Assembly: GCA_020053185.1 (NCBI GenBank)
Contig: JAGVNP010000311.1
Location: 1 to 31,148, forward strand
From: Deltaproteobacteria bacterium
Lineage (GTDB): Bacteria; Desulfobacterota; Desulfomonilia; UBA1062
DNA length: 31,148 bases
Reading direction: 5' to 3'
Program-made: the position numbers and the translations under genes
Notes under the pieces: model-generated
Told to the model about the DNA's origin: nothing
Databases searched by the model: none
The model's input: only the letters and a program-made list of their open reading frames with translations
In this document: positions 11,791-30,300 of the stretch, piece after piece
Layout of the letters: every line of letters begins with the position of its first letter
Numbering within the stretch: the stretch's first letter is position 1

Positions 11791-11954
11791 TGATGAACCA
11801 GCAAAAAAGCCGACACAGTGTCATTCCCGCATCATTTTCTGTCATTCCCGCGGAGGCGGGAATCCAGGGGTTGTGCAATTATCAGAGAATACTGGATTCC
11901 CATTTGCATGGGAATGACAACGGGTATGTTTTCCGACTTTTTACGAGATCATCA
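11791..11954. repeat. Composite palindromic MITE/REP-like element, copy A
   Basis: Core GTCATTCCCGCGGAGGCGGGAATCCAG...CTGGATTCCCATTTGCATGGGAATGAC (11841-11918) inside imperfect outer inverted repeats TGATGAACCAGCAAAAAAGCC / GACTTTTTACGAGATCATCA. Confidence 0.8.
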
Positions 11955-12180: not shown

Positions 12181-15156
12181 ATGGGAAAGAAAAGCAAAAC
12201 GAGGATTTTAATTCTTTGGACCGTAGCGTTGGTGACGATGCTCGGCCTGGCTGGGATAGCATTTGCCCTGACACCTGCCGGCACAATAATCGGCAACTCG
12301 GCAACCGCTACCTACTATGACGAGAACAACAATGAATATACCACTACATCCAATTTGGTAACAACCGAGGTACAGGAAGTATGCGGAGTTGATGTCACGC
12401 CGGATACCACAGTATCAAAACAAGGTGTTGCTGGTCAGACAGTATACATGCCCTTTGCAGTAACAAACAAAGGAAATGGCCAGAATACATTTAATCTTGG
12501 AACTTCGGCAACAGGTACTTCCGGTGCAACATACACGATCTACATTGACAGCAATGGAAACGGTGTGGTCGATGCTGGAGAAGGGGTGGCAAGCTCTGTC
12601 ACACTAAATGCAGATGCAGCAGCAGCTATTATTGTTGCAGTTGCAGTTCCTGCAGGTGCAGCAGATACCGACACATATTCTTTTACGCTCACTGCAACAG
12701 GCACAGCTCCTACCGGATGCGCTGATATAGAGGATGGATCTGTAGATGTGATTTCAGATGCACTGCTTACCATCAGTAAACAGGTAGACAAGAGCGTTTC
12801 AGCTCCGGCTGGCGTGCTCACCTACACAGTGAGCTTTCAGAACGTGGGTACAGTTGCTGCAAAGGCAAAGGATGACTTTGCTGTTGATTATGATAATGAT
12901 GGAGATGCTGATGCCAGCGTAGAAGGTATCCTAGTATCTGATGCTATCCCATCAGGCTCTGCATATAAAGCAGGATCTGCCTCGGGACAGCCACAAACCA
13001 GCCCGACAGGCTACGTTGTGTATTCTTCCAATGGCACGAGCTGGTTCAGGACAGAAGCTAATGCAGGAGGAGCAGCTGCAATTACCAATGTGGGATTTTT
13101 CATGCAGGATTCAGGTCCTATAGACACCACGCTTGGTAATGTGCTGGATCCTAACCAACAGGGATTCTTAAGTTTCCAGGTAACAGTGGATGACCCATTT
13201 GAAGAATCAGACGGTTATGTGGACAACGATGCGAGCGTTGCATATTCAGACAGCGCAAACACTTCACATGAGGTGACCTCAAATGAAGTACACACTCAAA
13301 TTCCTGCATCAACAACCGCTGATATTTCTACAAGCGATAGAAAAGCGACCTGGAATTTAGTGGAAGAGGATTCTGGCACAAACTGGCACAATGACAATGT
13401 GGTTGCTAGTGCGCCTGCAGGCCACTGGGTAGATTTCACGCATTCTGCTTCAAATAATGATGGAGTATATGCAGATGTGATAAGTCTTGAGACCGAGGAT
13501 GCACCTCTTGGCTGGATCGTTGAGTTCTGGAATGCAGACGGCACAGCAAAGCTCATTGATACCAATAGCGACGGAAAGATTGACCTTGGCACAGTTGCCG
13601 CACATGGCATTGCAAACTACATGGTAAAGGTATTCATCCCTGCCGATGAAGATACAGGCGGGAGCGTGGATATACTGGCAACATCAGGCAATAACCCGGC
13701 AGAAGTAGACAGAACACAGGATACAGTTACAGACATCATTACCGCGAATGTGGATATTGCGCAGCAGGGTTCTGGCGGTGATTGGGCAATAAATTCTGAT
13801 AACCCATCAGATAACAATACAGATGGCACTGCTGACAACGACGATATTCTTCCTGGAGACATGGACACAACAATTAATCCCGGAGAGACTATCTCATATC
13901 CGATACAGGTGGTAAATACCGGCGGATCTTCTGATTCCTACAGCCTTACCTATACAGGACTTCCTTCCGGCGCAACCGCAACCATCTCCACTGACGCTGA
14001 CTGTGATGGTATCGTAGAATCAGGAGATTATCAGATCACGGATACTCCGCTTATGGGTGGAACAGCCTTAAGATCTGCCGCATCAGCTACAAACACGCTA
14101 TCTGTGTACTCTGTTGCAAACTTCAGCGTAAATGATAAGTTAATCGTAGGGCTTGATGGTGTTGTACGGACAGTTACGGGTGTTGATACGTCAGCGAACA
14201 CAATCACAGTATCAGGATCAGCTATCACTGCTGCATCAGGCACGCTGGTATCCGAGTATATCTGTGTGGCATTAGTGGTTCAGACTGCAATAACCACACC
14301 TCCAGGTTCAGTCAACATAGTGGTTGAGGCTACATCACACAATTCCGGTGCATCCAATGATATGGATATGGCGCTTACAGTAAACGAAGTCTGCGGCATA
14401 TCTGTGAGCCCGGACAACTCAGGCACAGTGCCTCCTAGCGGATCAACCACCTATGAGCATATGATTCAGAACAGCGGAAATACGGCAGCAGATGTAACAA
14501 TCACTGTTCCATCAACTGGTACGCAGCTTACCTATGTAATACTTGATGCAGACGGCAATCCGCAGGGTACAAGCTATACTATTACCGGTCTTGCAGCAGG
14601 CGCATCAGCGAACTTCTCAGTAAAGGTTCAGGCTCCGTCATCTGTTACATCTGGAACCGTAGAGACTATAAACGTGACGGTTACTTCAAATGGAGCAGGT
14701 GGATGCTCTGATACTGTACAGGATTCTACATCGGTGATCGAGGGCTACATAGAGCTTACAAAGTACCAGAGCGTAGCAGACACTGATGGCCCGAATGCTC
14801 AGACAGGTATCTGCACAGGGAGTGCTGATTCCGTTACTGGCGGACCTTGCGACGAGATTACCTACAGGATCAAGTTCAAGAACGTGGGCATCCAGAACGC
14901 AGTGAATGTGGTGATCACAGATCCAATTCCTGATCATACCACATATGTGGCTGGGTCCTTAGGTCTTGATACTAACTGCGATGGTACAATCGACACTGCT
15001 TACGGAGATGGTACTGGTGACGCTGATCAGGCTGAATACGACTCCACGAACAACCTCGTGCGGTTCAGGGTCGGAGACGGCGCAACTTCATCTGTAGGCG
15101 GAACACTGGTTCCTGGCGCAGAAGGCTGCGTGATCTTTAAGGTAAAGATACAATAA
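12181..15156 (+). CDS. Exported 991-aa DUF11/Ig-like repeat protein, candidate major fibre subunit (operon gene B)
   Basis: AGGAGG RBS before ATG 12181; signal peptide ending GIAFA; mature start LTPAGTIIGNSATATY; several Ig-like domains with DxNxDG loops; one complete internal DUF11 and a terminal truncated DUF11 ending FKVKIQ-stop. Confidence 0.88.
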   Translation: MGKKSKTRILILWTVALVTMLGLAGIAFALTPAGTIIGNSATATYYDENNNEYTTTSNLVTTEVQEVCGVDVTPDTTVSKQGVAGQTVYMPFAVTNKGNGQNTFNLGTSATGTSGATYTIYIDSNGNGVVDAGEGVASSVTLNADAAAAIIVAVAVPAGAADTDTYSFTLTATGTAPTGCADIEDGSVDVISDALLTISKQVDKSVSAPAGVLTYTVSFQNVGTVAAKAKDDFAVDYDNDGDADASVEGILVSDAIPSGSAYKAGSASGQPQTSPTGYVVYSSNGTSWFRTEANAGGAAAITNVGFFMQDSGPIDTTLGNVLDPNQQGFLSFQVTVDDPFEESDGYVDNDASVAYSDSANTSHEVTSNEVHTQIPASTTADISTSDRKATWNLVEEDSGTNWHNDNVVASAPAGHWVDFTHSASNNDGVYADVISLETEDAPLGWIVEFWNADGTAKLIDTNSDGKIDLGTVAAHGIANYMVKVFIPADEDTGGSVDILATSGNNPAEVDRTQDTVTDIITANVDIAQQGSGGDWAINSDNPSDNNTDGTADNDDILPGDMDTTINPGETISYPIQVVNTGGSSDSYSLTYTGLPSGATATISTDADCDGIVESGDYQITDTPLMGGTALRSAASATNTLSVYSVANFSVNDKLIVGLDGVVRTVTGVDTSANTITVSGSAITAASGTLVSEYICVALVVQTAITTPPGSVNIVVEATSHNSGASNDMDMALTVNEVCGISVSPDNSGTVPPSGSTTYEHMIQNSGNTAADVTITVPSTGTQLTYVILDADGNPQGTSYTITGLAAGASANFSVKVQAPSSVTSGTVETINVTVTSNGAGGCSDTVQDSTSVIEGYIELTKYQSVADTDGPNAQTGICTGSADSVTGGPCDEITYRIKFKNVGIQNAVNVVITDPIPDHTTYVAGSLGLDTNCDGTIDTAYGDGTGDADQAEYDSTNNLVRFRVGDGATSSVGGTLVPGAEGCVIFKVKIQ

Positions 15157-15160
15157 AGGA

Positions 15161-15227
15161 TCGAGGCTAAAGGCTAAAGGCATGAGGTGAACTTACACCT
15201 TAAGCCTTTAGTCTAAGCCTTACTCGA
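15161..15227 (+). other. Long imperfect stem-loop built of 7-mer units directly after gene B
   Basis: TCGAG...AGGCTAAAGGC-ATG-AGGTG-AACTTA-CACCT-TAA-GCCTTTAGTCT...CTCGA. Confidence 0.6.
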
Positions 15228-15234
15228 AGCAGTA

Positions 15235-18200
15235 ATGGAAAATGGCCTCATGAAAAGAAAAGCCTCATTAGGGCTGAAAATACTTTTACAGGCAGGGGTT
15301 ACCCCTCACCTTGCTGTCATTCCCGCGGAAGCGGGAATCCAGAAAAAGATGAGCAAAGAACCTGGATTCCCGACCTGGTCGGGAATGACAAGACTGATGG
15401 ACCTTTTCCGGTTTACGAATCACGGTTTACGAATCACGAATTACGAATCACGAATTACGAATTACGCCCTACGTTTTACGCTTTACGTAATAGCAGCGTT
15501 GCTCGGCATTTTTGTTGCTACAGGAAGACCTGCGTTAGCATTCACCGAAGCGGGCACTCATATTTATAATACTTCATTTGCAACATATGAAGACACAGAC
15601 GGCTTTATCTATCATATTCAATCCAATACCGTAGAATTAACAGTAGCCCAGGTGTATGCGATCAATATCACACCTGACGGCACAACCGCCTCGCCAGGTC
15701 AGAAAAAAAATGCATATCCGGGCGGAGAGGTTTATTTACCATATGTACTTACAAACCCTGGAAACGGCCCAGACTCATATCAGCTTGATGTAGAAAATCT
15801 ACCTGGCGATGATGAGGATCTTAGCAATCTTAAAATTTATATCGATGAAAATCAGAACGGGGTTGTTGATCCATCAGAGCCTGTTTATGATAACACCAAT
15901 CCTCCGCTCATTGATTCAGGTGGGAGGCTCTATCTTGTAATAGCAGGCACAGTTCCTGCATCTGTGGCTTCAGGCACGATTTTTGTAAATGTGAACGGGA
16001 CTTCAAACGGAGATGGGACAAAGGTCGATAATGAAAATGTTTCAAAAATCAACATAACAGCAGATGGGTTTATCGAGGCATACAAGTCTGCTGACAAAAC
16101 CGAAGTAGACCCCGGTGGTACGGTTACCTTTACCATAGAATTCCAGAATAAAGGCTCAAAGCCTGTTTTGGGCACAGATATCTTCAACTGTAATGGCGAT
16201 TTTGATAATGATGGGACAACAGAGACAGCAGAGCAAGGGCTTCTGGTAGCTGATGTTGTACCGGATCATCTGACCTACATCGACGGAAGCGCCACATGGG
16301 CGCCGTTGCAGGGATTCCCCGTGTTTGCAGGCACAAACGGGATCTGGAAGGACGATGCCTCTGATGTAACTGGCTCAATTGAGTCAGTAGGGCTCTTTAT
16401 ACCTGAGGATGCATCTGGCGAGACACTTGTGCCGGATCAGGGCGGATTTGTTTCTTTCCGATGCACGGTAAATACTGATGCGCCGGTAAGTACAATTTCG
16501 AACACAGCAGAAGTTAAATATGCAAATTTAAACGGGCACCAGGTCACACCTACCAATACGGTAGAAGTGGATATACTTCCCAGAATAGATATCCGGGCTG
16601 ATGACACGGATGAAATCAACGAACCCGAGCACGAAGGCTCTGGAGTAGCGTCAGACGAGCATGATGTGATGTGGATCGACCATGCTGCATCCGGGGCGTG
16701 TATAAGCTTTGAAAATGAGGTTTGGAATCTCGGGAATGTAGACGATGTGATCAATGTCACATTTGATCAATCAAGATCTGAAAACCTGCCAGATGGCGCC
16801 GCTACCACTGGGGTCCTGTTCTATAACTTAGACGGCGCACTGCTGACAGACAGCAACGGCGACGGCAAGCCAGATGTAGGCGTTGTAAGTCCTGGAGAAA
16901 GCGTTCACTTTATCACAAAGGTCTGTTTCCCTGAAGGGAGTTCCGCGAATGATGTAGTGATTGCAGTAGAAGGTTCTTCCAGCCTGGACCCCAGCAAGAC
17001 CGATCTCACATTTAACAGGACCGGTGAAGTAGTGGCAGCTTCTGTCAAAGTGAATGTCATTGTTGGGAATACAGAAGAGCCCTGGGTCAAGAAAAAAGTT
17101 ATTGTTTATGAATATGACTGCTACGGAAACCTTACAGATCAAAAGGTTTTCTGGACCGATAGTAGCGGATTTATCGCATATGATGAATTTGGCAATTCCT
17201 CTCCCCTCTACAACTGGATAGAGGATAGTGACCCTAACGACCCTGACTGTAAATATACCTACAGAATAGGGCTTACCGAAGACTACTCGGGCTTTACTTA
17301 TTATGTATCCCCTGGATTCTCCAAGTCAGATATTGACCAGACAACCTCCTCCGATGAAACCCCCAAGCCTGGCACAGGGGGAAAGATCACTACTCAGAAG
17401 CTTCCAAGCGGGGGAAAAGTGTTGTCGGCCAGCATTGATCCTGCAGGATATGTCTATGATGGGGTGACAGGAGAGCGCATAGACAGGGCATGTGTCGTAC
17501 TTTATAAATGCAATGATAGTTCCTGCTCCAGCTATACTGCTGTTGATGCATCACTCCTTGATGTGTATCCTGACGGAAGCACGTTACAGGACAATCCGCA
17601 GGTCTCAGGCCCTACAAATGGGTCTGGCACTGATGTGGGAAAAGGCGATGGGGCCTTTGAGTTTAAGTTTTCTGATTTTACGCCAACAGATGAAGGGTGG
17701 TATTTTGTAGAGGTTGATTTTGACTGCGGGCTTCCTGCCAGCGATGCAAATCTGGCAAATGATTATAATCCTGTATTGCTTAATTCCGGCGCCACATGGG
17801 ATCCTTCTTCAGGAGCGCCTTACCATGGCCAGCGTTTCTATATTGATGCAACCAATTCCGGCGCAATAAACATGAGGATTCCTTTGCTGCCAGCGGATTT
17901 TGTTCCTATTGAGATCAAAAAAGAGGTGAATAGCGATATTGCATCCATAGGCGATCCGCTCAAGTTCACCATTACAGTAACGAACCCTAGCCCATACACA
18001 TGCTATGATGTGGATGTAATTGATACGCTGCCAAAAGAGCTTCGGTACAGAAAAGGCACAACAACCATAGACGGGGCTAAAGCCGATGATCCTGAGATCT
18101 CTTCTGATGCAAGAATGCTTACATGGAATATAGGAAACCTTGATCCGGGCGGTAGTGTAAAAATCACGTTTTATGCAATAGTAGGTGCAAACATCACAGA

Positions 18201-20583
18201 AGGAGCAAAGAGGGCTAATGTTGTCCGGGCTTTAGGGTGGAGCGACGACAACCATTCCTATCCAATAGAATCCAGTCCGGCCTATGCATATTTCAAGCTC
18301 ACAAAAGGTGTATTCACTGACAAGGCCTACATCATAGGCAAGGTGTTCATAGATGAGCCGAATTGCGAGCAGCTCTCTGGCGAAATTGCCATCACCAGGA
18401 CCATAGAATATAGTCTGGAAGATTCTGCCAAAGACAAAGACGCGAAAATAGCAACCTTACTTGCCGGACAAAAAGACAAATCAAACTTTGCCTCTTTAGA
18501 CAGGATGATCCTCATACACAAAGTCTTTATCCATAATAAATCACAGTATCCATTTTACTCGATCTCTTACAAAGAAGACTCAGCCTTTAAGCCGATAAAA
18601 GGAAGCTCGTTGCTGGAAGGAGACCTGATCCATGATCCCAAAGCCGGGGATGGCGCGCTTATCTGGAAGATAAAAGACATAGAGCCGGGCAAGGTTGTTG
18701 TTCTGACATTTGCCTCTGAGTCTAAAGATAGTGATGTAGATGAGATAAAATGCGAGATACCGTTCAGCATTGAAAAGGACAATATCAAAAAAGACCTGAA
18801 GGTTGAGCTTCCAATTATATTCAAGATGCAATCCCCGGATGAATATCAGCTCGCGGTGTATTTTGATTTTGGAAAATATAACCTCAGCCAGAATGATAAA
18901 GCAGCCCTTGATAAGGTCATAAAGACCGTCAAGGCCAAGGGATACAAAAAACTTTATGTAAGCGTCAAGGCCTACACTGATTCTGTAAGGGTTATGAAAG
19001 AAGAGGAGCGGGCCTTCCAGGATAATCTCCAGCTTTCAGGACAAAGGGCTGAAACCGTAAGGAAATATCTGGCAGACCAGCTCATTGAAATGCAAAAGGT
19101 TGAAGTGGTGCATGAAGATGTAAAGCCTGTGCTGAAAAATACATTCAGTATAAAAGTCGTCACATCTAATGACCGGGCTTCAATCTCCAAGTCAGAGAAA
19201 ATTTTGAAGGACAAAGAAATTCCTTCATTTGTACAGGAAAAGATTATTAACTATAAAACAAAGGAATACACCTTATATGCAGGCGGCTTTGACAAGAAAG
19301 AGACCGCTGAAGCTGCTGTAAAAGAACTTTCCAAGGTGTTTAATGACGGGTTTGTAATCGAGCCAACGTCTGTTGAAAAGATTTTCCTTGATGAAAACAT
19401 CCTCTACCAGATCGAGGCATTAGGGCCTCTTGATCCCAAGGTTGAAAACCTGCTCTCTTCAGTCGGCACGCCTCAAAACCGCAGGGCTGAAGTAAAGATC
19501 ATCCCTATTAACATAGGAAACTATTCAATGAATCTAAGCAGAGTCGCAGGAGCAGAATGCGATGTATGCGGAAACGGCATCCAGGATAATAATGAGCAGG
19601 GTGTTTCCGGAGTAAAGATATACATGGAAGACGGCAGATATGTCGTCACTGATTCTGAAGGCAAGTATCACATAGACAATGTAGATCCCGGCATACATAG
19701 CTTGAAGGTAGATAACACAACCCTGCCGCCAGGCACTTCTCTTGCCATAATAAATAACCGCAATATGGATGATCCGGAATCCATGTTTGTAGATCTGTTC
19801 CCCGGGGACATCTTCAAAGCCAATTTCAGGCTATGTCCAGGGCCAAGACTGGAGGCTACAGAAAAAATATGTGATCCGCTTGTGAGCAGTATAAGGGTTA
19901 CCAGAACGATCAAAGACATTTTGATAGACCCGGGCTCAGGGCTGATACGGCTCAAGCATGAAATCATAATAGAAAATCATTCGGATCTTCCGCTGTTCGA
20001 GACCACGTACAAAGAGGTCTCGGCATATAAAATAGTGCCTGGTACAGTATCTTTCAACGGATCTCCGTTCAAAGATCCCAAGTACAAAGACGGTGCATTT
20101 ACATGGAATCTCACGCTTGTAAAGCCAATGGATGAGATCCATATATGCTTCACATCAGAGACCCCGCAAAAATCAACAGATATAAATGCAACGCTTGAGT
20201 TCAGGGCTAAGCCGATAGCCACCCCCAAGGAGATCAAGGTGGAGTTGCCTGTTCATTTTGCAAGTAGAGAAAAGAGCATCTATGAACTCACGGTTTACTT
20301 TGATTTTGGAAAATACAATCTCAGGCCTGATGCCGTAAAGACCCTGGATAAGATCATCGAGACTCTCCGGAAGAAAGACTATGACATGGTCTATGTCTGG
20401 ATAAGGGCACATACAGATGCCACCAGGGTCGATCCGAGCAAGCTGGAATATGAAAACAATCCGGAGCTTTCAGAGAAGCGGGCAACCATTGTCAGGGAAT
20501 ATCTGAAAGCCGGGCTTATCGATATCAAGAAGATCAAAGTCCAATCAGGCGAGCCTGACGGCAAAACAGGCGAGGGAAAATAG
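15235..20583 (+). CDS. Exported DUF11 / SdrD-B-like / OmpA-like / SPOR multidomain protein, candidate peptidoglycan-binding anchor (operon gene C); true start may be 15385 or 15397
   Basis: h-region VIAALLGIFVATGRPALA, then FTEAGTHIYNTSFATY; the first ~500 mature residues are paralogous to gene B. Two DUF11 domains; SdrD-B-like GNGIQDNNEQGVSGVKIYMEDG..VTDSEGKY; OmpA-like VYFDFGKYNL...YTD...LS..RA...NRRAEV with a SPOR insert; a second, half OmpA-like domain at the C-terminus. Confidence 0.88.
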   Translation: MENGLMKRKASLGLKILLQAGVTPHLAVIPAEAGIQKKMSKEPGFPTWSGMTRLMDLFRFTNHGLRITNYESRITNYALRFTLYVIAALLGIFVATGRPALAFTEAGTHIYNTSFATYEDTDGFIYHIQSNTVELTVAQVYAINITPDGTTASPGQKKNAYPGGEVYLPYVLTNPGNGPDSYQLDVENLPGDDEDLSNLKIYIDENQNGVVDPSEPVYDNTNPPLIDSGGRLYLVIAGTVPASVASGTIFVNVNGTSNGDGTKVDNENVSKINITADGFIEAYKSADKTEVDPGGTVTFTIEFQNKGSKPVLGTDIFNCNGDFDNDGTTETAEQGLLVADVVPDHLTYIDGSATWAPLQGFPVFAGTNGIWKDDASDVTGSIESVGLFIPEDASGETLVPDQGGFVSFRCTVNTDAPVSTISNTAEVKYANLNGHQVTPTNTVEVDILPRIDIRADDTDEINEPEHEGSGVASDEHDVMWIDHAASGACISFENEVWNLGNVDDVINVTFDQSRSENLPDGAATTGVLFYNLDGALLTDSNGDGKPDVGVVSPGESVHFITKVCFPEGSSANDVVIAVEGSSSLDPSKTDLTFNRTGEVVAASVKVNVIVGNTEEPWVKKKVIVYEYDCYGNLTDQKVFWTDSSGFIAYDEFGNSSPLYNWIEDSDPNDPDCKYTYRIGLTEDYSGFTYYVSPGFSKSDIDQTTSSDETPKPGTGGKITTQKLPSGGKVLSASIDPAGYVYDGVTGERIDRACVVLYKCNDSSCSSYTAVDASLLDVYPDGSTLQDNPQVSGPTNGSGTDVGKGDGAFEFKFSDFTPTDEGWYFVEVDFDCGLPASDANLANDYNPVLLNSGATWDPSSGAPYHGQRFYIDATNSGAINMRIPLLPADFVPIEIKKEVNSDIASIGDPLKFTITVTNPSPYTCYDVDVIDTLPKELRYRKGTTTIDGAKADDPEISSDARMLTWNIGNLDPGGSVKITFYAIVGANITEGAKRANVVRALGWSDDNHSYPIESSPAYAYFKLTKGVFTDKAYIIGKVFIDEPNCEQLSGEIAITRTIEYSLEDSAKDKDAKIATLLAGQKDKSNFASLDRMILIHKVFIHNKSQYPFYSISYKEDSAFKPIKGSSLLEGDLIHDPKAGDGALIWKIKDIEPGKVVVLTFASESKDSDVDEIKCEIPFSIEKDNIKKDLKVELPIIFKMQSPDEYQLAVYFDFGKYNLSQNDKAALDKVIKTVKAKGYKKLYVSVKAYTDSVRVMKEEERAFQDNLQLSGQRAETVRKYLADQLIEMQKVEVVHEDVKPVLKNTFSIKVVTSNDRASISKSEKILKDKEIPSFVQEKIINYKTKEYTLYAGGFDKKETAEAAVKELSKVFNDGFVIEPTSVEKIFLDENILYQIEALGPLDPKVENLLSSVGTPQNRRAEVKIIPINIGNYSMNLSRVAGAECDVCGNGIQDNNEQGVSGVKIYMEDGRYVVTDSEGKYHIDNVDPGIHSLKVDNTTLPPGTSLAIINNRNMDDPESMFVDLFPGDIFKANFRLCPGPRLEATEKICDPLVSSIRVTRTIKDILIDPGSGLIRLKHEIIIENHSDLPLFETTYKEVSAYKIVPGTVSFNGSPFKDPKYKDGAFTWNLTLVKPMDEIHICFTSETPQKSTDINATLEFRAKPIATPKEIKVELPVHFASREKSIYELTVYFDFGKYNLRPDAVKTLDKIIETLRKKDYDMVYVWIRAHTDATRVDPSKLEYENNPELSEKRATIVREYLKAGLIDIKKIKVQSGEPDGKTGEGK
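15316..15389. repeat. Palindromic element core, copy B, within the longest possible 5' end of gene C
   Basis: GTCATTCCCGCGGAAGCGGGAATCCAG...CTGGATTCCCGACCTGGTCGGGAATGAC; reads VIPAEAGIQ...GFPTWSGMT in frame. Confidence 0.8.
15411..15487 (+). repeat. Heptamer array encoding the n-region of the gene C signal peptide
   Basis: TTACGAA TCACGGT TTACGAA TCACGAA TTACGAA TCACGAA TTACGAA TTACGCC CTACGTT TTACGCT TTACG; reads TNHGLRITNYESRITNYALRFTLY. Confidence 0.75.
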
Positions 20584-20651
20584 GGGAGAAATTTGCGAAT
20601 TTCGAATTTCGAATTGAAGAACGAGGAACGAGGATTAAGGATTATGAATTA

Positions 20652-20794
20652 TGATGATTTCATAAAAAGTCAAATATCCTGTCACTCCCGTTCTATTTCT
20701 TGTCACTCCCGCGGAGGCGGGAGTCCAGAACTGCTTTCTGGAAATTCCTGGATTCCCGTTTGCATGGGAATGACTGCTTTTTGCGGATTCACCA
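20652..20794. repeat. Composite palindromic element, copy C, between genes C and D
   Basis: Outer TGATGATTTCATAAAAAGTC ... GCTTTTTGCGGATTCACCA; core GTCACTCCCGCGGAGGCGGGAGTCCAG...CTGGATTCCCGTTTGCATGGGAATGAC at 20702-20774. Confidence 0.78.
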
Positions 20795-20795
20795 A

Positions 20796-20946
20796 AGGTT
20801 ATGAAGGTTAAGGGGTAGGGATTAAGGGATTATGGTTCAAGGTTCAAAATACATGGTTCAGGGTACAGGGGAAAATTTCGAAATTCGAAATTCGAAATTC
20901 GAAATTCGGAACACCCTGCGCCTTATACCTTATACCTTACACCTCT
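20796..20946 (+). repeat. Composite heptamer cassette spanning the RBS, start codon and n-region of gene D
   Basis: TAAGGG/GGTTCA units, then (TTCGAAA)n, then (ACCTTAT/ACCTTAC)n; a related array sits at 20589-20651. Confidence 0.75.
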
Positions 20947-23900
20947 CACTTGTATTTTTCATCCTGCTGTGCCTTATGCCCTTGAGCGGGTATGCACAAA
21001 CCTCGAACTCCGATCCCCGAACCCTGACCCCTGACCCCCGATCCCAGAACATTGCTTATTCCATCCAGATCGGGCCAAACATGGACAAGCCAGGCGCTGA
21101 ATCCTTTTTAAAGACTCTCCCGGATGCAGTGAAGAACAAAGATGCCTTTATATATCAGACAGACAAAGGATACTGGACTGTTCGTGTGGGTATTACAGAA
21201 AAGCCGGAAGGGTTAGATGAGCTCAAAAAATGGCTGGCATCTGAAGGCATTGAAGATGCAGCTGCAGTAAAGACAGACATACGGAAGGTCAGTGGTCAGT
21301 GGTCAGGAGCCAGGAGTCAGGAGTCAGGGATCAAAGGTGAAAGCTCAAAGGAAATAACTCCGCAAACCACAATCCGAGATTCGAAATTGAAAGATGAAGC
21401 ATTGATTCTGCCTATGATCGATAAGGTCTATTCTACGCTCTGGTCTGTACAGCTCGGATCATACAGCGATAAACAGACCATGGAAGCCTTTTTTCAGAGT
21501 CTTCCTGATTCAGTGAAGCGCAAAAATGCCTTTATATATAAAGGTAAGCGGGGATATTGGGCTGTTCGTGTGGGTTTTGCAGAAAAGCCGGAAGGCTTGG
21601 ATGAGCTAAAGGCATGGCTGGTCTCTCAAGGGCTTGAAGACATACATATGGCGAAGACTGAAGTAAAAAAGATAGAGTCCAAAGAGCTGAGAGATAAGTT
21701 GCTTGGTCGTTCTGTAAAAGAAGCGGACACAAAGACTCTAGAGCCCGAGGAAGACGAGTGGAAGACCATTTACAGTGTGCGGCTATTGAGAACAGAAAAC
21801 CTGAAACAAGTACAAAATGCAACCATAGATATAGAATCCAAGGGCATTCCCACATTCATGAGCGAGAACATCACGTATTTTAAGAAGAGGCTGTACACAC
21901 TCTATGTGGGAAGATTCTTGAGCCAGGATGAAGCTGAGAAGGCAGCTGCTGAATTATCGAAAAAATACGGCAAATGTCCTGTTGACCCATTGTTTACACG
22001 AACAATAGGTGGCGACAGCCTCGGAGACATATTCTACCTTGACGCAATGCATACCCTGGAGCCAAAGGTACCTAACAGACTTTCTACATCAGGCACTCAG
22101 GAAAATCGCCGCGCCGAAGTACTGATATTGCTCTTCAAGGAAACCACAGAGTCGGTAGAAAAGTCCTTTATGGAAAAAGGCAAAGGAAGTCAGTGTATCT
22201 TTAAATTTTATGCAAACTATCTCTATCCCCTTGAAGAGATTTACGATATCAGCGCCTTCATGAGCCTTCCTGAAGGGTCAGCATATGTGGATGGTAGCTT
22301 TGTGATAAATGAAATCCCTGTTACAACAGCGAAGAAAGGCAGATATATTGTTGCCTCTACAGAAAAGCTCATCGGGTATGATCCATTTACCATGAGCATA
22401 AATGTGGCCGGAAGAGAGGATATAAAAACAGAGGAGATCCACTATGTGGTTTATGGAAAGACAAGAAACGGCAAGACGCTAAAGCTTGTTACCTCGAATG
22501 ATGAGATAATGGAAAATGAAGCACTTGCTATCTATCTTCCAAATCCCACACCCGAGAAGATGGAAGAATCTGAGGTAAAGGCGCTTATCAGGAAACCTTC
22601 TTTCGGCATCATTTATCCTGAGAGGAATATCATTGTCTCAGGCAAGCAGACAGATATCGATGTGGCAATCCCCGTGAAGTCCGAATACAAGCTGCTCATA
22701 AATGGCAAAGAAGCTGATAAGAAGAACCTGTCAGAGACAGCCACGGATGAAAAGCTTGGAGTTAAGGTGGTAAGCTACACAGCAGTAGCTTTGGAAGATG
22801 GCGAAAACCACATAAAGATTATTGTTGACGGGAAGCCTTTTGATGAAAAGCAGATTACTGTAACAGGAAATGTGGCGCGTCTTAGCTACGAGATCTATCC
22901 TAAAGAGCCGTCTGCAGACGGCAAATCGAGCGCATATGTTATGGTGCGGCTCCTTGATAAGGATGGTAAGCCTGTAAAACAGAATGCATATATAAAGGTC
23001 TACGTTGATAAAGGTGATATCTTCGATGACGAGACCGATTCGTTCAAGCGTTTTGATGATGACGGATTTGAGGCACGGGTAATAGCAGGCGAGGCTACCA
23101 TAAAACTTTCCCCTGCAAGCACTACAGAAAAACGCAGTATGAAGGTGGAGTTTGGCGATGGTCTTGAAAAAGATATCGATGTGCGCTTTTATCCTGAGAA
23201 GAGACCCTGGATAGTAAACGGCGTGATTGAAGGCACTTATACTGAGAGTAAGACGAAAAATTCAGATGAGGCTCTTGTCGAATATCCTGCAGATCATTCT
23301 GAAGAGGGCTCGCATACTGATGTTGACGGCGGAGTGTTTGCAAAAGGCAGTGTCAAAGATTATACCCTGACATTTAAGTATGAAAATAAGCCAAAAGATG
23401 AAGACATAATTCTGGAGCAGAACATTCCATCTACAGAAGAGGAGCAATACTATCCTGTATATGGCGATGAGTCAGAGCAGTTCTTTGAGGCAGCCTCCCA
23501 GGACAAGTTTTTTGTCAAGGCAGAGCGGGGCCTGTCCTATTTCATGCACGGAGATTTCAAGACAGATCTGAAAGCCCCTCAGCTGGAATACAATGTCTAT
23601 GACAGAACGCTTAATGGAGAAAAAATCAATCTTGAAGTGAAGGATAATTTCAAGATCACAGGCATACATTCATATACATCCCAGGATATAGTGAAAGACG
23701 AGCAGCCGGGCCGGGGCGTTTCAGGGCCGTATTTCTTTGGAAAAGGCATACCTGTTGAGTTCAGTGAAAAAATCTACATCGAAGTGAGAGACCGGTATCA
23801 TCCGGATAGAGTGCTTGACAGGCAGGATCTCAACAGGTTCACCGATTATACTGTAAACTATGATGAAGGCTGGGTTCTGTTCAAAGAGCCTGTACATCAA

Positions 23901-26453
23901 TATGATGATAATTTTGATCTGCAATATATCGTTATAATCTATGAGACTAATACGCTGGCTGAAGACAAGCATGTCTTTGGCGGAAGGGCAGAAAAAGAGC
24001 TGATAAAAGGCCTGCGTATAGGCGGTCTTGCTGCAAGCGAAGAGAGGGATGTTAAAGACAGGCTGGTAGGCGGCCTTGATATCACATATGACGACGGCAA
24101 AGGACTAAAGTTTGTTGCAGAATATACGGCTGCAGACGGATATGATGAGATTGCCCTAAAAGAAGTATCAGGTGATGCAAAAAGGGCTGAGATCTCTTAT
24201 GATAAGGAATTCAAGAAATTTACAGAAAAAGGAAACGCCTATTTTACCGATGTTGAAGACGAGTTTCAGAATCTGTCTACCAGCGCCATCATAGATGGTA
24301 AACAGGCCTATGGCGCCAAAGAGGAGTTTAAGGTAAAGAAGACAAAGACGACGTTGTCTGCAGAAGCCTACAGCGAAGAGGAAAAAGACGGAAGCTCTAC
24401 AACAAAGGTTGCATCTGCCGAGGTGAAACAGGAAATCGGAAAGAAAGTTTCGCTCACTGCAGGCGCAAGGGTGATCAATGAAGAAGAGCCTCCGGATGAA
24501 AGAGATATTACCCAGGTCATAGGCGGGATAGGCATAAAGCCTATAGAAAAATTGAGCATTAATGTAAGAAGAGAGCAGTCTCTCGTGGATGACGATGAGG
24601 AAAAATCAGACCGCTATCCTTCCAAGACAGTAGCAGGGATAAAATATAGTCTTACGAAGAAGACATCGGCATATGTAACCACTGAACTTCAGGAACTGCC
24701 TGAAAAAGACGTTGCCCTGACAACGTTCGGCACAGAGACCTCGCTCACGAAAAACACCACTGCCTTTGCAAAATACACGATCGATGACAGCATTAGTGGC
24801 TGGAGAAATCAGGCTCACTCTGGGCTTAACCATTCGTGGGCGATCGAGGATAATTTCTCAATAAGTGTAGGCGGAGAAGAGGTCAGAACGTTATCCGGTG
24901 ATGACAGCGAAGATTATACGGCATCGAACATAGGTTTCCAGTATTTTCAACCTGATAAGAAAAAATATACCATGTCTGGAAAATGCGAAGCGCGGTTTAA
25001 CAATGAAACAGACAATGAGTATGTAATGAGCTTTGGCGGCACACTCAAGATCGCAAAAGACTATACCATACTTGCGCGGGAGAGATTTTTCGATTCAGAG
25101 TTTGACGAAAACGACCTTCTCTTAGGTCTTGCATACAGACCTGTTTCCTATGACAAATTCAATAGCTTGATGAAATTCAGATATAAATGGATAGAAGAGA
25201 GTGAAGAGGAGAAGATAGTAAAATATATAGGGTCATGGCATGCCAACTATCAGCCCAACAGAGATCTTACCCTCATGGGAGAGTATGCATTCAAGATCGT
25301 TGATGATGGGCTACACACCTACACGGATCTTGCACGCTTACGGGTTTTGTATGATGTGACAGACAGGATAGATTTAGGGGTGCATGGCGGCGTTCTGATG
25401 CAGCATGATACAGATACATACAGCCTTGCATACGGGCCAGAGGTCGGCGTTAGGGTGATCAAGAATGTATGGGCAAGCGCAGGCTACAACTTCTCGGGCC
25501 TTACGGATGAAGATTTTGACGATGCAAGCGCCTGGAACAAGGGTTTTTACTTCAAGCTGAGGGCAAAGGTTGACGAAAATACGCTCTCAGATATTAAAAA
25601 AGCAGTAAAGAGGAACCCGAAGGAAAAGAAGATCGAGGCATCAAAAGAGACAGTAAAAAAGATAGAACCTTTGATGGATTCAGATAATGATGGCGTGCCT
25701 GACTCTAAGGATAAGTGTCCTGATACACCGAAAGGTGTAGCGGTTGATAAATCTGGATGCCCCATAGACAGTGACAATGACGGTGTAGCTGATTATTTAG
25801 ACAAATGTCCAGACACACCAAAAGGTGTAAAGGTAGACGGGTTTGGATGTGCTCTTGATAGCGATGCAGATGGTGTTCCTGACTATCTTGACAAGTGTCC
25901 TGATACACCGAAAGGCGTTAGAGTTGATAAGGTCGGATGTCCCCTTGATAGCGATAAAGACAGTATTCCTGATTTTCAGGATAAATGTCCGGAAACGCCT
26001 TCTGGTGTAGCTGTGGATCTGACAGGCTGTCCGCTTGATAGTGATGGTGATAATGTTTCTGATTACCGGGACAAATGCCCTGGTACGCCAAAAGGCGTAG
26101 CAGTTGATGAGAATGGATGCTGGACGCTTCATGGTGTGTTGTTCGAGTATAAAGAATGGAAACTTAAAAAAGCGATTTATCCCAGCCTGAAAGATGTGGT
26201 TAAGGTGCTGAAGGCGAATCCGGAACTTAAGATAGAGGTGCAGGGTCATACTGATAATATTGGAAACGATAAGTATAATCAGGATCTGTCAAATAAGCGT
26301 GCAAAGGCTGTAGCAGATTTTATTATCAGCCAAGGCATTGCAGCGGATAGGATTTCATATAAGGGTTATGGATTTTCAAAGCCAATTGCTTCGAACGATA
26401 CAGAAAAAGGAAGGGCGATGAACCGCAGGGTTGAGTTCCAGCCAATCTATTAA
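20832..26453 (+). CDS. 1873-aa outer-membrane protein: 3 SPOR, half OmpA-like, Ig-like domains, large predicted beta-barrel, 5 TSP3-like repeats, C-terminal OmpA domain (operon gene D)
   Basis: TAAGGGA RBS; signal peptide ending PLSGYA; SPOR-like YSIQIG...YWTVRVG; alternating amphipathic strands from RPWIVNG (~23200) to GFYFKLRAKVDE (~25575); DSDxDGVPDxxDKCP repeats; canonical GHTDNIG...LSNKRA...GYGFSKP...NRRVE. Confidence 0.88.
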   Translation: MVQGSKYMVQGTGENFEIRNSKFEIRNTLRLIPYTLHLSLVFFILLCLMPLSGYAQTSNSDPRTLTPDPRSQNIAYSIQIGPNMDKPGAESFLKTLPDAVKNKDAFIYQTDKGYWTVRVGITEKPEGLDELKKWLASEGIEDAAAVKTDIRKVSGQWSGARSQESGIKGESSKEITPQTTIRDSKLKDEALILPMIDKVYSTLWSVQLGSYSDKQTMEAFFQSLPDSVKRKNAFIYKGKRGYWAVRVGFAEKPEGLDELKAWLVSQGLEDIHMAKTEVKKIESKELRDKLLGRSVKEADTKTLEPEEDEWKTIYSVRLLRTENLKQVQNATIDIESKGIPTFMSENITYFKKRLYTLYVGRFLSQDEAEKAAAELSKKYGKCPVDPLFTRTIGGDSLGDIFYLDAMHTLEPKVPNRLSTSGTQENRRAEVLILLFKETTESVEKSFMEKGKGSQCIFKFYANYLYPLEEIYDISAFMSLPEGSAYVDGSFVINEIPVTTAKKGRYIVASTEKLIGYDPFTMSINVAGREDIKTEEIHYVVYGKTRNGKTLKLVTSNDEIMENEALAIYLPNPTPEKMEESEVKALIRKPSFGIIYPERNIIVSGKQTDIDVAIPVKSEYKLLINGKEADKKNLSETATDEKLGVKVVSYTAVALEDGENHIKIIVDGKPFDEKQITVTGNVARLSYEIYPKEPSADGKSSAYVMVRLLDKDGKPVKQNAYIKVYVDKGDIFDDETDSFKRFDDDGFEARVIAGEATIKLSPASTTEKRSMKVEFGDGLEKDIDVRFYPEKRPWIVNGVIEGTYTESKTKNSDEALVEYPADHSEEGSHTDVDGGVFAKGSVKDYTLTFKYENKPKDEDIILEQNIPSTEEEQYYPVYGDESEQFFEAASQDKFFVKAERGLSYFMHGDFKTDLKAPQLEYNVYDRTLNGEKINLEVKDNFKITGIHSYTSQDIVKDEQPGRGVSGPYFFGKGIPVEFSEKIYIEVRDRYHPDRVLDRQDLNRFTDYTVNYDEGWVLFKEPVHQYDDNFDLQYIVIIYETNTLAEDKHVFGGRAEKELIKGLRIGGLAASEERDVKDRLVGGLDITYDDGKGLKFVAEYTAADGYDEIALKEVSGDAKRAEISYDKEFKKFTEKGNAYFTDVEDEFQNLSTSAIIDGKQAYGAKEEFKVKKTKTTLSAEAYSEEEKDGSSTTKVASAEVKQEIGKKVSLTAGARVINEEEPPDERDITQVIGGIGIKPIEKLSINVRREQSLVDDDEEKSDRYPSKTVAGIKYSLTKKTSAYVTTELQELPEKDVALTTFGTETSLTKNTTAFAKYTIDDSISGWRNQAHSGLNHSWAIEDNFSISVGGEEVRTLSGDDSEDYTASNIGFQYFQPDKKKYTMSGKCEARFNNETDNEYVMSFGGTLKIAKDYTILARERFFDSEFDENDLLLGLAYRPVSYDKFNSLMKFRYKWIEESEEEKIVKYIGSWHANYQPNRDLTLMGEYAFKIVDDGLHTYTDLARLRVLYDVTDRIDLGVHGGVLMQHDTDTYSLAYGPEVGVRVIKNVWASAGYNFSGLTDEDFDDASAWNKGFYFKLRAKVDENTLSDIKKAVKRNPKEKKIEASKETVKKIEPLMDSDNDGVPDSKDKCPDTPKGVAVDKSGCPIDSDNDGVADYLDKCPDTPKGVKVDGFGCALDSDADGVPDYLDKCPDTPKGVRVDKVGCPLDSDKDSIPDFQDKCPETPSGVAVDLTGCPLDSDGDNVSDYRDKCPGTPKGVAVDENGCWTLHGVLFEYKEWKLKKAIYPSLKDVVKVLKANPELKIEVQGHTDNIGNDKYNQDLSNKRAKAVADFIISQGIAADRISYKGYGFSKPIASNDTEKGRAMNRRVEFQPIY
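21049..21672 (+). repeat. Tandem duplication of a SPOR-like domain within gene D
   Basis: AFIYQTDKGYWTVRVGITEKPEGLDELKKWLASEGIED vs AFIYKGKRGYWAVRVGFAEKPEGLDELKAWLVSQGLED (27/38 identical by hand count). Confidence 0.8.
25674..26123 (+). repeat. Five 90-bp (30-aa) thrombospondin type-3-like Ca-binding repeats
   Basis: xDSDxDGVxDxxDKCPxTPxGVxVDxxGCx five times, exactly 450 nt. Confidence 0.9.
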
Positions 26454-26454
26454 T

Positions 26455-26574
26455 TAAGGGGTAAGGATGATGACACAGGGTTCAGGGGACAGGGTTCAGG
26501 GGAAAATTTCGAAATTCGAAATTCGAAATTCGAATTACACCTTACACCTTACACCTTACGCCTTACGCTTTACG
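26455..26574 (+). repeat. Composite heptamer cassette at the start of gene E
   Basis: TAAGGGGTAAGG-ATGATG-ACACAGGGTTCAGGGGACAGGGTTCAGGGG-(TTCGAAA)n-(CACCTTA)n. Confidence 0.75.
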
Positions 26575-26994
26575 ATAATCTTGATATTCGCCATGATTGT
26601 TGCATCGCCTGTCCATAGCCAGGAAGCAGTTAATCTTTCGCAGGTTGAGCATAAGATCACAGTTGCATCGCAAGGAAGGATAGAAGTCAGTCTCAATCTT
26701 TACAATGACCTTGGTGAAGATATATCTTTAACAGCAGACAAGTGTTGAGGGCTGTCAGTGACCTTCCCGGCGGGAAGTGAGGTAAAAGGCGGTGAGATGA
26801 AACCTGTTGTGATAAACACAACAAAACAAGATACTACAGTGAACATAAAGTTTCAGGGCAAACAAGCAAGCGGGAGCCTGAAAGTGATACTAGAGAGAGA
26901 AAAGAAACAGGTGAAGGCAGTGGAGAGCAAAGCTAAAAATATCCCCATGCCTTCTCCAGAAGTGAAGTATGAAGAAGAAGGAAATAGGGATTGA
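26467..26994 (+). CDS. Small exported beta-rich protein with an in-frame TGA at 26746-26748 (possible selenoprotein, or a nonsense-disrupted gene) (operon gene E)
   Basis: ORFs 26467-26748 and 26758-26994 are in the same frame, separated only by TGA-GGG-CTG-TCA; reads ...LTADKC*GLSVTFPAG...; signal peptide IILIFAMIVASPVHS. Confidence 0.65.
26763..26777 (+). promoter_or_regulatory. Candidate bacterial SECIS hairpin
   Basis: CTTCCC-GGC-GGGAAG; the loop starts 20 nt after the UGA and begins with GG. Confidence 0.45.
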
Positions 26995-27031
26995 GGATAA
27001 AAACAGGATTATGGGGTATGGATTAAGGATT

Positions 27032-27186
27032 ATGGTTTTGCAAGAAAGTCCTCATTCTCGTTTTATTTCTGTCATTCCCGCGGAGGCGGGAATCCAGAGA
27101 TCGTACAACTGTCAGAAAATACTGGATTCCCATTTGCATGGGAATGACATGGAAATGATTTTTTCGACTTTTTGAGAGAGCGTTAA
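27032..27186. repeat. Composite palindromic element, copy D, between genes E and F
   Basis: 78-bp core at 27071-27148 with both arms identical to copy A; outer arms ...GCAAGAAAGTC / GACTTTTTGAGAG... Confidence 0.8.
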
Positions 27187-27397
27187 GGGTGAAGGTAAAA
27201 GGTTTCAGTAGGGTATAAAGGCTGAATGTTAATTAAGGGGTAAAATGATGGTTCAGGGTTCAGGGTTCAGGGTTCAAGGTTTAGGGCGAAATTTCGAAAT
27301 TCAAAATTCGAATTTCGAAATTTGCAATTCGCAATCCGCAAATCGCAATCCGCAAATCGCCCCACACCCTACACCTTACACCTTATACCTTAAACCC
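27185..27397 (+). repeat. Composite heptamer cassette at the start of gene F
   Basis: (GGGTTCA)3; perfect 14-bp inverted repeat AAATTTCGAAATTC / GAATTTCGAAATTT (27289-27323); CGCAATC/CGCAAAT units; CACCTTA units. Confidence 0.75.
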
Positions 27398-30300
27398 TTG
27401 TTAGCCATTCTTTTTATCATTGCCTCTTTTCTTATACCCTTTAAAGCCTCTGCAGCGAGCACGTCTCTTGTTATCAATGAGGTGATGTTTGATCCAACAG
27501 GCGCTGATACCGGCTTAGAATGGATAGAGTTTATCGCAAGGAACGATGTAACTATAACAGGGTGGGACTGCTTAGATAAGGATAGTAACACATATACATT
27601 CCCTAGCCTTAGTTTAAAAGCTGGCGAGATCGTGGTCCTGCATATAGGCACGGGCACAAATGATCTTACAGGGCCTGTATATAACCTGTATACCAATGGA
27701 GCCGCTACAACATGGCTTGACAATGTTGGCGACAGTATCCGGCTTAGGAATGGATCAGATGCTGCAGTAGATTATATGGCATACGGAAATGCCGGCGCTT
27801 GGTCTGGCTATACATGGACCAACAACATTGATATTACGTATATCTATGAAGGCCTCAGCATCGGCCTTAGCAGGGACGGGATAGATACTGATAACGGCAC
27901 TGGATGGACAGAGTATTCTACCTCTACATCTGGCAACCCCAATAAGACCTCCGGCATAGGCGTAGTAAAGACAGGAACAGAAGAGATATCAAGGGGAGAC
28001 GCAGCCGGCGGAGAATACACACTAACCATCGCAAACAGCGGTGACGGGCCAGCCTATGGCAGCGCATCATCGCCATATGGCATGGTTGTTGTGGATGACT
28101 ATCCGACAAACTTCTCTGTGTTATCTGTGACATCGGTGACGAGAAACGGGATAACATTCTCGTCGTATTCCCAGTCAAATGATGGCGATAAGATTACGTT
28201 TACAAGTCTGCCTGTGCTTATGCCAGGGGATACGCTGGAGATCAAGTTTAAGTTCTATGTGGACTGCGTTGCAACTATCGGATACAAGACAAATCTTGTA
28301 ACCGCAAAATATCACGACCTTCCTGACCTTTCAGATGCAGAAAAGAATGAGCAGGCTGTTTTGGATACCCTTGTGGACAAAGGCACGCTGGTGGTGAAAA
28401 TGGAGGCCATTGCCATAAACGGCACTCCCATAACACCTACCCCCACACCTGCGGCAGAGGTCGGCGAGACAATAAAGGTAAGGGTTTCGCTGCATAATAC
28501 AGATAACGGCAAGCTTTTTGATGTAGCATCAGCGACAACATGGGGAACAGGGCTTACGTATGTGGGCAATCTGGTATGCAATAATGTCACGTGCAGCTAC
28601 GACAGTGTAAATACAAAGGTAACTTCCACAGTCTCTGAAATTCCTCCGAGTACAATAGATAATACCTACTCATACACCTTTGACGTAAGGGTAGATGCAT
28701 GTGAAAATCTCACATCAACCTCTACCGGCACTGGAAAGTGCCTGGCAGCAGGAGGTATCGAGGAAGGGGTTGAGGTCATTATAAAGACCCCGGATATTGA
28801 TTATACCCTGCCTACCATAAGCATCCCTTATGCAGGGACCCAGTCAGTAAGCATCCCTGTTACAAACAACGGCAACGGCAAGGCATATACATTCAGCCTG
28901 GATACCAACATGGAGAGCCTGCCACTTAGCGTGTCAAATATCGCATCTGGATGGACATACAATGCAGGCACAGGGGTATTTACCTATAGTGCAGCATCGT
29001 ACATTTTGCCAGGGGCAACTATCCCGCTTACCTTTGACCTCGCAACCTCTGTAAGCTGCGCTGACAGAAGCCCTTCAGGCATGATAACCTTTACGCCGCT
29101 GTATTACAACGGCTGCACGAAAGCGTTTGCTGCGCCGCGCAAATACACGACCTTTTCCACTACAAACGTACCTGTTGTCACAATAGCAAAAACAACCCCA
29201 AACACATATGTGCATGTGGGTGATCCTGTGTCGTATACTGTTACCTTGGGCGCATCTTATCCGTCCGGCATATCCGGGAACATTGTGGTCACAGATACTG
29301 TGCCGAGCCAGATAGTAAGTGTAGGCGCATCTGCAACAGCAGGGTCTGTAACAGTGTCGGGCAATGATATTACCTGGACCATTGCTCCCGGAGTGGCAGA
29401 TGGTGAAGTCCTTACCATCACCGGCACAGTGGATAGCGACCCTTGTCTCCAGGGAACAACGATAACCAATTCTGCCTCATTTACTGCAGCAGATACTCAG
29501 GGCTGTCCTTTGGCAGGCTCCGGCTCGGCTACCATATATATAAACAACAACCCTGATGCTACAATTGCCCAGCAGAAGTCTGTGATTGGGTCTTTGGAAG
29601 CATGCAACCCTGCTGGCATTACCATAACAAACACATATACCATGGGCACCGGAGTTTCTGGCACCTGGGCAGGCTCTTCATTTAAAGACGACCTGCACAG
29701 CGGAGGCCTCTGCTATATGACCGGCACTGCCGAATACAGACTTGATACAGATGACGGCTCGGGCACAGCATGGACAGCATGGACAGCAATCTCATCTGGA
29801 AATTTGAGCATTGGCTCCAACGGCGAGCTCCAAGTAGATCTCTCGTTCCTGGCAGCAATAGACGGAGATGCGAATGTTGCAGGCAATGATATTCAGATAA
29901 GATACAAAGTCTATGTGTGCGAGGAAAACCTTGGCGGCGCAACATCTGTGACATGGGATTTGCTCTCAACCCTGCATATAGAGGGTAACACTGGAAGCTG
30001 TGGATCTAACGGAGATTATGTCCAGCATCTGCTTCTGGATCTGTATACTGCGTCCATAGCCCTTGCCATAGACATACCTGCAATAATAGAAGACTGCGGC
30101 GTATATGATGCAACGATCACTGTCTCGATGGACACGCCTGCTCCTTACTATGATCTGATCATTGATATGCCTGTAGGAAACTATGAATATCTGGACAGCC
30201 TTGTTGCGTCAGGATTCAATGGCCACACGCCCGTTGTCAGCACCTTAACTGGTCCTGCAAGGGTGAGGTTCAGCTTTGATTTTGATACCAACAATCCTGA

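Follow-up and report, generated by a model that had tools for sequence, protein, structure and literature searches.

Do the heptamer repeats at the starts of three genes in a bacterial operon belong to the encoded proteins, and how did they come to be there? The question is raised by genes D, E and F of contig JAGVNP010000311.1 (GenBank assembly GCA_020053185.1, a deltaproteobacterium placed in Desulfomonilia, UBA1062), whose 31,148 nt were analyzed as a whole and are called the window below. The assembly is a metagenome-assembled genome (MAG) of 1.78 Mb, in 340 contigs, with 44% GC and 78% completeness; the best matches of its GlyQ, at 77%, are in MAGs labeled Deltaproteobacteria. Each of the three genes opens with a composite of tandem 7-nt arrays, here called a cassette, upstream of the hydrophobic core of a signal peptide. 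Three further copies were found elsewhere in the genome, in genes for minor pseudopilins. Judged from sequence, the cassettes are almost certainly translated as oversized leaders in all six genes.

Cassettes of genes D, E and F

The order of parts is common to the three genes: a purine-rich head resembling a Shine-Dalgarno (SD) sequence, ATG, GGTTCAG-type units, a palindromic TTCGAAA array, CACCTTA-type units, and then the hydrophobic core. Among the three, only F has an extra GCAATYC array, placed between its TTCGAAA-type apex and the CACCTTA-type units. Arrays were located with Tandem Repeats Finder (TRF) at the places given in a first-pass annotation of this DNA, and the peptide strings that it had read from the shared architecture also match.

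The D cassette (20808..20950, forward strand, as for all features of these genes) has the head TTAAGGGGTAGGGATTAAGGGATT, a GGTTCA-type left arm, the TTCGAAA apex and a CCTTATA/CACC right arm, with in-frame ATGs at 20832 and 20853. Its arrays are TTCGAAA x4.6 at 20877-20908, 100% perfect, and CCTTATA x3.4 at 20921-20944; the signal peptide h- and c-regions are at 20940..20996 (codons 37-55, GYA then Q). D ends in a TAA at 26451-26453, and the head of the E cassette, TTAATTAAGGGGTAAGG, begins 1 nt later. That cassette (26454..26574) continues with ATGATG at 26467, GGTTCAGGGGACAG units, TTCGAAA x3.9 and TTACACC/TTACGCC x5.7; TRF reports ACAGGGTTCAGGGG x2.1 at 26475-26503, the TTCGAAA array at 26508-26534, and TTACACC x4.6 at 26535-26566. 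The E h- and c-regions follow at 26572..26622 (codons 36-52). The F cassette (27233..27398) has ATGATG at 27245, GGTTCAG x5.3 (27250-27286), a GAAATTC-type apex, the GCAATYC array and a CACCTTA-type right arm; TRF also reports CGAAATT x6.9, GCAAATCGCAATCC x2.6, and CCCTACA-type units to 27398. The F apex holds an inner inverted repeat of 17 nt at 94%, and within it lies the perfect 14-mer noted in the first pass. Its h- and c-regions are at 27398..27454 (codons 52-70, ASA then A). The heads of E and F are identical over 15 nt (TTAATTAAGGGGTAA), with ATGATG after them in both.

Read from the left-arm ATG, the leaders are 55 aa (D), about 51 aa (E) and 70 aa (F), where a usual Sec signal has about 18-30 aa. 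Features of the Sec type are present (positive n-region, hydrophobic core, AXA-like cleavage motif), as judged from the sequence itself. The repeat-encoded n-regions carry a net charge of +2 to +4, counted by hand from the translations as K/R minus D/E.

Further copies in minor pseudopilin genes

The first-pass annotation had proposed a genome-wide search for the cassette at other gene starts. With a pattern made from DNA only, this search yielded three more copies, all on contig C30, in the leaders of the minor pseudopilins GspH, GspI and GspJ of a type II secretion operon (gspF, gspG, minor pseudopilins H, I and J, gspK). The six copies are collinear in alignment, at 82-91% identity, and the alignment takes in non-repeat joints such as GAAAATTTCGAA and TTCGGAACAC. 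F and GspI share the GCAATYC block, and the GspI cassette is the closest copy of F's. Because the copies are collinear at this identity, joints and shared block included, we take the six cassettes to be homologous rather than independent products of slippage. In GspH, GspI and GspJ the apex array is TTTCGAA, the reverse complement of the TTCGAAA that D, E and F have, so the palindromic center may have flipped between copies. A degenerate relative on contig C4 contains stops and is non-coding; about 80 nt separate it from a downstream lipoprotein gene with a start of its own.

The pseudopilin cassettes are placed between the ATG and the prepilin Gly-1, giving leaders of 31 aa (GspH), 56 aa (GspI) and 54 aa (GspJ). 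The major pseudopilin GspG has a normal leader, MNNNK then Gly-1, with no cassette, and the six other prepilins of this genome have leaders of 4-14 aa. The Pfam N_methyl match is displaced to residues 30-50 in GspH, 54-74 in GspI and 52-75 in GspJ, versus 2-27 in GspG.

Heptamer repeats in the rest of the genome

The arrays of the genes above far exceed what chance would give, but they have many counterparts. TRF gave 349 rows of period 7 and 96 of period 14 over the genome, merging into 301 heptamer regions of 146 unit types. Although stop-to-stop open reading frames (ORFs) cover 92% of the genome, most of the regions are intergenic (164 of 301); 51 overlap ORF ends and 86 lie within stop-to-stop ORFs, with a bias to 5′ ends. 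Folding was scored as z of the minimum free energy against dinucleotide shuffles, and 46% of the 59 elements of at least 60 nt have z below −2. The cassette is a special, stop-free member of this common, mostly intergenic class. It had been said that the idea of a coding gene start would fall if the cassette were equally common in non-coding positions and had no effect on expression. As to position, this holds for the wider class of heptamer hairpins, which is mostly non-coding, and fails for the stop-free composite: among 122 genomes of the class, the DNA-only composite pattern occurs in this genome alone and at gene starts alone, and it had no match in metagenome contigs.

A phmmer search with residues 1-60 of F against 1.84 billion representative proteins gave one real match, the GspI of the same genome; eight other matches were rejected as spurious translations of GGTTCAG-like arrays. 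In cluster look-ups, each cassette protein is known from a single contig. Heptamer arrays as such were found in genus g10 of the same family, and next to glyQ in MAGs labeled Deltaproteobacteria, Syntrophaceae/Syntrophales, Nitrospinota, Desulfobacterales and anammox bacterium. Going by these sequences, intergenic heptamers are taxonomically widespread.

Probable translation of the repeats

The pseudopilins are an independent test of the earlier proposal that the repeats of F are probably translated. In GspH, GspI and GspJ there is no ATG, GTG or TTG from the cassette to Gly-1, the 18-30 codons ahead of that residue having none, and in GspJ, read by eye, the 18 codons ahead of it also lack ATN and CTG. 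The precursor has to include Gly-1 with the basic residues in front of it, and the cassette is followed by no canonical start; for this reason the right arm at the minimum, and in the simplest case the entire cassette, is almost certainly translated in these genes. D likewise has no ATG, GTG or TTG from the cassette to the hydrophobic core, and no canonical start was found before the core of E. F has no ATG in this interval, as the first pass had reported; its sole alternative start is the TTG of codon 52, with which the h-region opens; the pyrimidine-rich arm precedes this codon and has no SD sequence. The ATG of the left arm is in frame with the gene in all six cassettes, which random phase would give about once per 700 trials.

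These observations bear on the alternative that the cassettes are hairpins of 5′ untranslated or intercistronic RNA, acting as terminator, attenuator or mRNA stabilizer; a weak or non-canonical codon farther downstream would then be the start, and the frame would be open simply because the units are poor in stops. The intergenic setting of most heptamer regions (with 51 more partly so), the folding of so many of the longer elements, the non-coding copy on C4 ahead of a gene with its own start, and the TTG of F are all in its favor. It fails at the pseudopilins, because the frame has to be read through the prepilin Gly-1, with no ATG, GTG or TTG downstream of the cassette from which to do so. 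In D and E there is no usable start before the h-region, the pyrimidine-rich right arm offers no SD sequence, and the left-arm ATG is in frame more consistently than chance would have it. We regard an untranslated hairpin as quite unlikely.

A stop-free 7-nt unit repeated at least three times encodes the same cyclic heptapeptide whichever frame is used, and only the total length must be a multiple of three. An array inside a conserved DHH-family phosphoesterase (contig C39, ~6340-6370, minus strand) gives independent support for translation of such units, as far as sequence can tell: TTCGAAA x4 gives NSKFEIRNSKF within a variable loop that is 6 aa shorter in five orthologues. Other heptamer arrays that seem to be translated are on contigs C78 (4472-5824), C252 (2719-3453 and 1-1821) and C71 (96-1514); they would encode an extension at the N-terminus of a radical-SAM-like protein, a loop that lies between membrane segments, and n-regions at two further signal-peptide-like starts.

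The gene callers of NCBI and IMG predicted the cassette-bearing N-termini, except in the IMG call of GspJ. This gene (C30 2709-3527, minus strand) is called at 272 aa, cassette included, by NCBI and at 214 aa by IMG, whose start is the Met inside GFTLMELL, with loss of the prepilin cleavage motif.

Gain or loss of a unit had been expected to frameshift the gene, and simulated changes of ±1 unit did truncate D, E and F, after 10-69 codons. The cassettes could on this ground be contingency loci, in which slipped-strand gain or loss of 7-nt units toggles each operon gene independently, as the CTCTT repeats do in Neisseria opa (PMC3960869). The unit is not a multiple of three, the arrays are in the leader-coding region, and several are perfect, such as the TTCGAAA x4.6 of D. 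Yet the assembly has each of the six cassette genes in the ON frame, and gene C too, with its different array (see below); the arrays are short (3-7 units) and often imperfect; and the same ones abound in non-coding DNA and occur in the housekeeping DHH protein, where switching would be senseless. Phase variation is thus an unlikely role for them.

Insertion into existing leaders

Pseudopilin gene junctions were compared in 44 genomes of the family, namely this one and 43 relatives, for a total of 121 scored junctions. At about 95 of these the Gly-1 codon of the next gene is 1-10 nt past the previous stop, and the leaders of the relatives at these genes have 3-13 aa. Insertions of 37-163 nt are present at 15 junctions, in 11 cases remaining open in frame; the three largest (160-163 nt) are the cassettes of this genome.

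The flanks retain parts of the older leaders. The ATG of GspI and its upstream context match those of relatives base for base; the 156-nt cassette comes after MNEKG, and a second K-K-S-G stands behind it. At GspJ, the end of the old leader is doubled around the cassette (TTCTCTCA ... AAAGGC). The relative G005 has a 106-nt hairpin insert, not of heptamers, in its GspJ leader (3150-3265, reverse strand), flanked by duplicated GGGTTTACCCT and with GFTL encoded twice; this looks like a target duplication. In all three of these cases the flanks repeat 11-27 nt of the old leader, and no defined terminal inverted repeat was seen. In the relatives G015 and G024, a heptamer array extends from the native end of the GspH leader. 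By this comparison, the pseudopilin cassettes are insertions into an existing leader and not new gene starts.

The proposal of a portable gene start accordingly holds in part of the set. In E and F the start appears to travel with the cassette, because of the identical 15-nt head and ATGATG. In GspI the ATG is ancestral, and the TTAAGGGGTA of the head is generic, being found in purine-rich repeat arms away from starts. No orthologue of F was found among 40 relatives, none of D in genome contigs or metagenome contigs, and E likewise had none to compare with.

The same comparison bears on the idea that the cassette genes are being inactivated by repeat invasion, or that the arrays are assembly artefacts. 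The MAG is fragmented and incomplete, and the leaders are abnormally long. Against this, no copy has a broken frame, the ORFs that follow are uninterrupted and long (1873 aa and over 1301 aa), the copies are on two contigs with consistent flanks, and independently assembled relatives have comparable in-frame insertions at the same junctions. Decay or artefact is highly improbable.

RNA folding and access to the ribosome binding site

Each cassette is predicted to fold as a long imperfect hairpin. In its stem the CCTTA-type right arm is paired to the G-rich left arm, where the SD sequence and AUG lie, and the apex is made by the palindromic TTCGAAA array. The complementarity of the arms had been recognized in the first pass, and the folds bear it out: z is −3.3 for D, −3.0 for E, −4.1 for F, −2.7 for GspJ, −3.6 for GspI and −1.7 for GspH, the weakest; the C4 copy has −5.9. 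The perfect complement of CACCTTA is TAAGGTG, which contains a stop. The translated copies have GGTTCAG- or GGTACAG-type units, with mismatches, while non-coding hairpins elsewhere retain TAAGG-type arms. A search of Rfam with the window from 15000 to 27600 gave no match at E-values up to 0.1.

Accessibility of the start was taken as the predicted unpaired probability over positions −15 to +5, ranked against the genes of the genome. It is under the genome median in every cassette gene; it is extreme only in D (4th percentile) and GspH (0.5th), with E, F, C, GspI and GspJ at percentiles 12-41 and GspG at the 84th. Occlusion of the ribosome binding site (RBS) by the hairpin, put forward in the first pass as a means of damping translation, is by these predictions plausible but modest.

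The preferred SD sequence of the genome is GGAGG, enriched 24-fold; AGGGG and TAAGG are weaker variants, at 9-fold. The TTAAGGGGTA head was considered as a dedicated RBS and rejected, since it also turns up in repeat arms with no gene behind them and the genome prefers GGAGG.

A proposed explanation

The cassettes are probably tolerated repeat DNA, translated within cleaved leaders, with a probable side effect of damped or coupling-dependent initiation of minor components. They would be one stop-free family of the genome-wide, hairpin-forming heptamer repeats that came to lie in frame in the leader-coding 5′ ends of six export genes, and in gene C a different heptamer array would hold the same position. 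Translation would begin at the left-arm ATG (the ancestral one in the case of GspI) and read through all arrays, as it could because a stop-free 7-nt unit gives the same cyclic heptapeptide in every frame. The products would be leaders of 51-70 aa on Sec signals and 31-56 aa on prepilins. Signal peptidase or prepilin peptidase would remove them, leaving the mature protein unchanged, which is why insertion would be tolerated. We infer that the genes are expressed and the leaders cleaved. The hairpin, with SD sequence and AUG in its 5′ arm, may lower or condition initiation of what are mostly minor components.

Several points weigh against this explanation. A leader of 51-70 aa is very much longer than usual and might interfere with targeting. 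The in-frame TTG at the first h-region codon of F is a possible downstream start, and the relatives G015 and G024, which have a GTG two codons ahead of Gly-1, may start downstream of their insert. Insertion is demonstrated for the pseudopilins only, D and F having no orthologues in the sets searched, and the predicted burial of the RBS in E, F, C, GspI and GspJ is modest. The cassette counts are lower bounds, as the MAG is only 78% complete in its 340 contigs, and contig ends may hold more.

A more ambitious proposal would make the cassette a functional, mobile leader module. Its preferred insertion sites would be junctions in secretion and pilus operons where translation is coupled, and it would duplicate the leader end and supply or keep the start; the hairpin and the slippage-prone heptamers would set a low, switchable stoichiometry of minor subunits. 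The cassettes would then stand for an undescribed class of cis-regulatory coding repeats, widespread in uncultured anaerobes. We consider this rather unlikely and prefer tolerated repeat DNA in cleaved leaders.

Other repeats in the window

Gene C had been credited with a related array. An array is present, TTACGAA x7.7 at 15413-15466 by TRF, in the segment 15385..15488 (forward strand) that begins at the likely start, ATG 15385 or 15397, and the array is probably translated into the n-region. It is tandem only, with no hairpin (z +1.4), and was rejected as a copy of the D, E and F cassette, having another unit family and no such folding.

A separate family of nested palindromes, resembling repetitive extragenic palindromic (REP) elements and of the type TCCCGC..GCGGGA, is found at ~11830-11930, 15305-15392, 20690..20780 and 27060-27150. 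One such palindrome, GTCATTCCCGCGGAGGCGGGAATCCAG ... CTGGATTCCC ... GGGAATGAC, is upstream of each large gene, B, C, D and F. The core has 38 matches genome-wide, nearly all intergenic. A long ORF of C, from the ATG at 15235, passes through the REP-like element. Just 3′ of the B stop, at 15164-15230, AGGCTAA x2.6 stands opposite TTAGNCT-type units, forming an intercistronic hairpin between B, a putative major subunit gene, and C. The mature region of D has CCCTGAC x2.4 and GGTCAGT/GTCAGGA arrays (21022-21038 and 21287-21328), which are about 250 nt apart and mutual reverse complements; they are read as the low-complexity linkers ..DPRTLTPDPR.. and ..SGQWSGARSQESG..

Comparison with known systems

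Rickettsia palindromic elements (RPEs) are palindromic repeats, similar to miniature inverted-repeat transposable elements, that have entered protein-coding genes in frame (review: PMC10969869). The cassettes resemble them as a dispersed, hairpin-forming family of ~100-170 nt, in frame in unrelated genes, apparently translated, and lacking from orthologues: there are six hairpin copies on two contigs, and orthologues without insert for GspH, GspI and GspJ (in the set of 43 genomes) and for the DHH array. Unlike RPEs, to which they have no sequence relation, they are built of tandem 7-nt units, with plastic size and a frame-independent peptide. They are in cleaved leaders rather than mature protein, apart from the bare TTCGAAA array of the DHH loop, and no terminal inverted repeats or classic short target site duplications were seen, only the flank duplications of 11-27 nt.

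Coding repeats in the leader-peptide region of Neisseria opa are phase-variable (PMC3960869). Here too, a tandem unit that is not a multiple of three is in the leader-coding region, such that a change in unit number shifts the frame. The difference is that the units are heptamers, in three or four distinct short arrays set in series as a hairpin, and that they are also common in non-coding DNA. The short tandemly repeated repetitive (STRR) sequences of cyanobacteria and the TAACTGA repeats of Beggiatoaceae, cyanobacteria and Bacteroidetes are intergenic heptamer direct repeats (PMC4679880), with inter-strain indels in 7-nt steps, and heptameric repeats of Xanthomonas and Nostoc are treated in another report (PMC4692102). 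The likeness to STRR and TAACTGA is in abundant 7-nt tandem arrays, mostly intergenic and often directly upstream of start codons. TAACTGA, however, holds stop triplets and is described as untranslated, whereas the cassette is a stop-free composite apparently read as protein, with an inverted pair of arms around a palindromic apex.

In autotransporters and TpsA proteins a conserved protein motif, the extended signal peptide region (ESPR), forms a long N-terminal extension ahead of the Sec signal. An unusually long extension before a normal Sec signal on very large exoproteins is a shared feature; in the cassette genes the extension is repeat DNA, and is present also on small proteins and prepilins. 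ESPR had no Pfam match in D or F. Export leaders encoded by hairpin-forming heptamer arrays are described in none of the literature on RPEs, opa or STRR/TAACTGA repeats, and we found no paper describing the cassettes.

The discordant calls for GspJ are an example of a practical consequence, that gene callers disagree on cassette starts. Should the cassettes be translated, leaders of the signal-peptide and prepilin types would be kept even at two to ten times the usual length, and cleaved leaders would be a safe harbor for repeat DNA inside genes. The cassettes also part genes that overlap in relatives, and mark minor pseudopilins and not the major GspG, which makes it possible to test whether repeat hairpins are linked to the stoichiometry of subunits in secretion and fiber operons.

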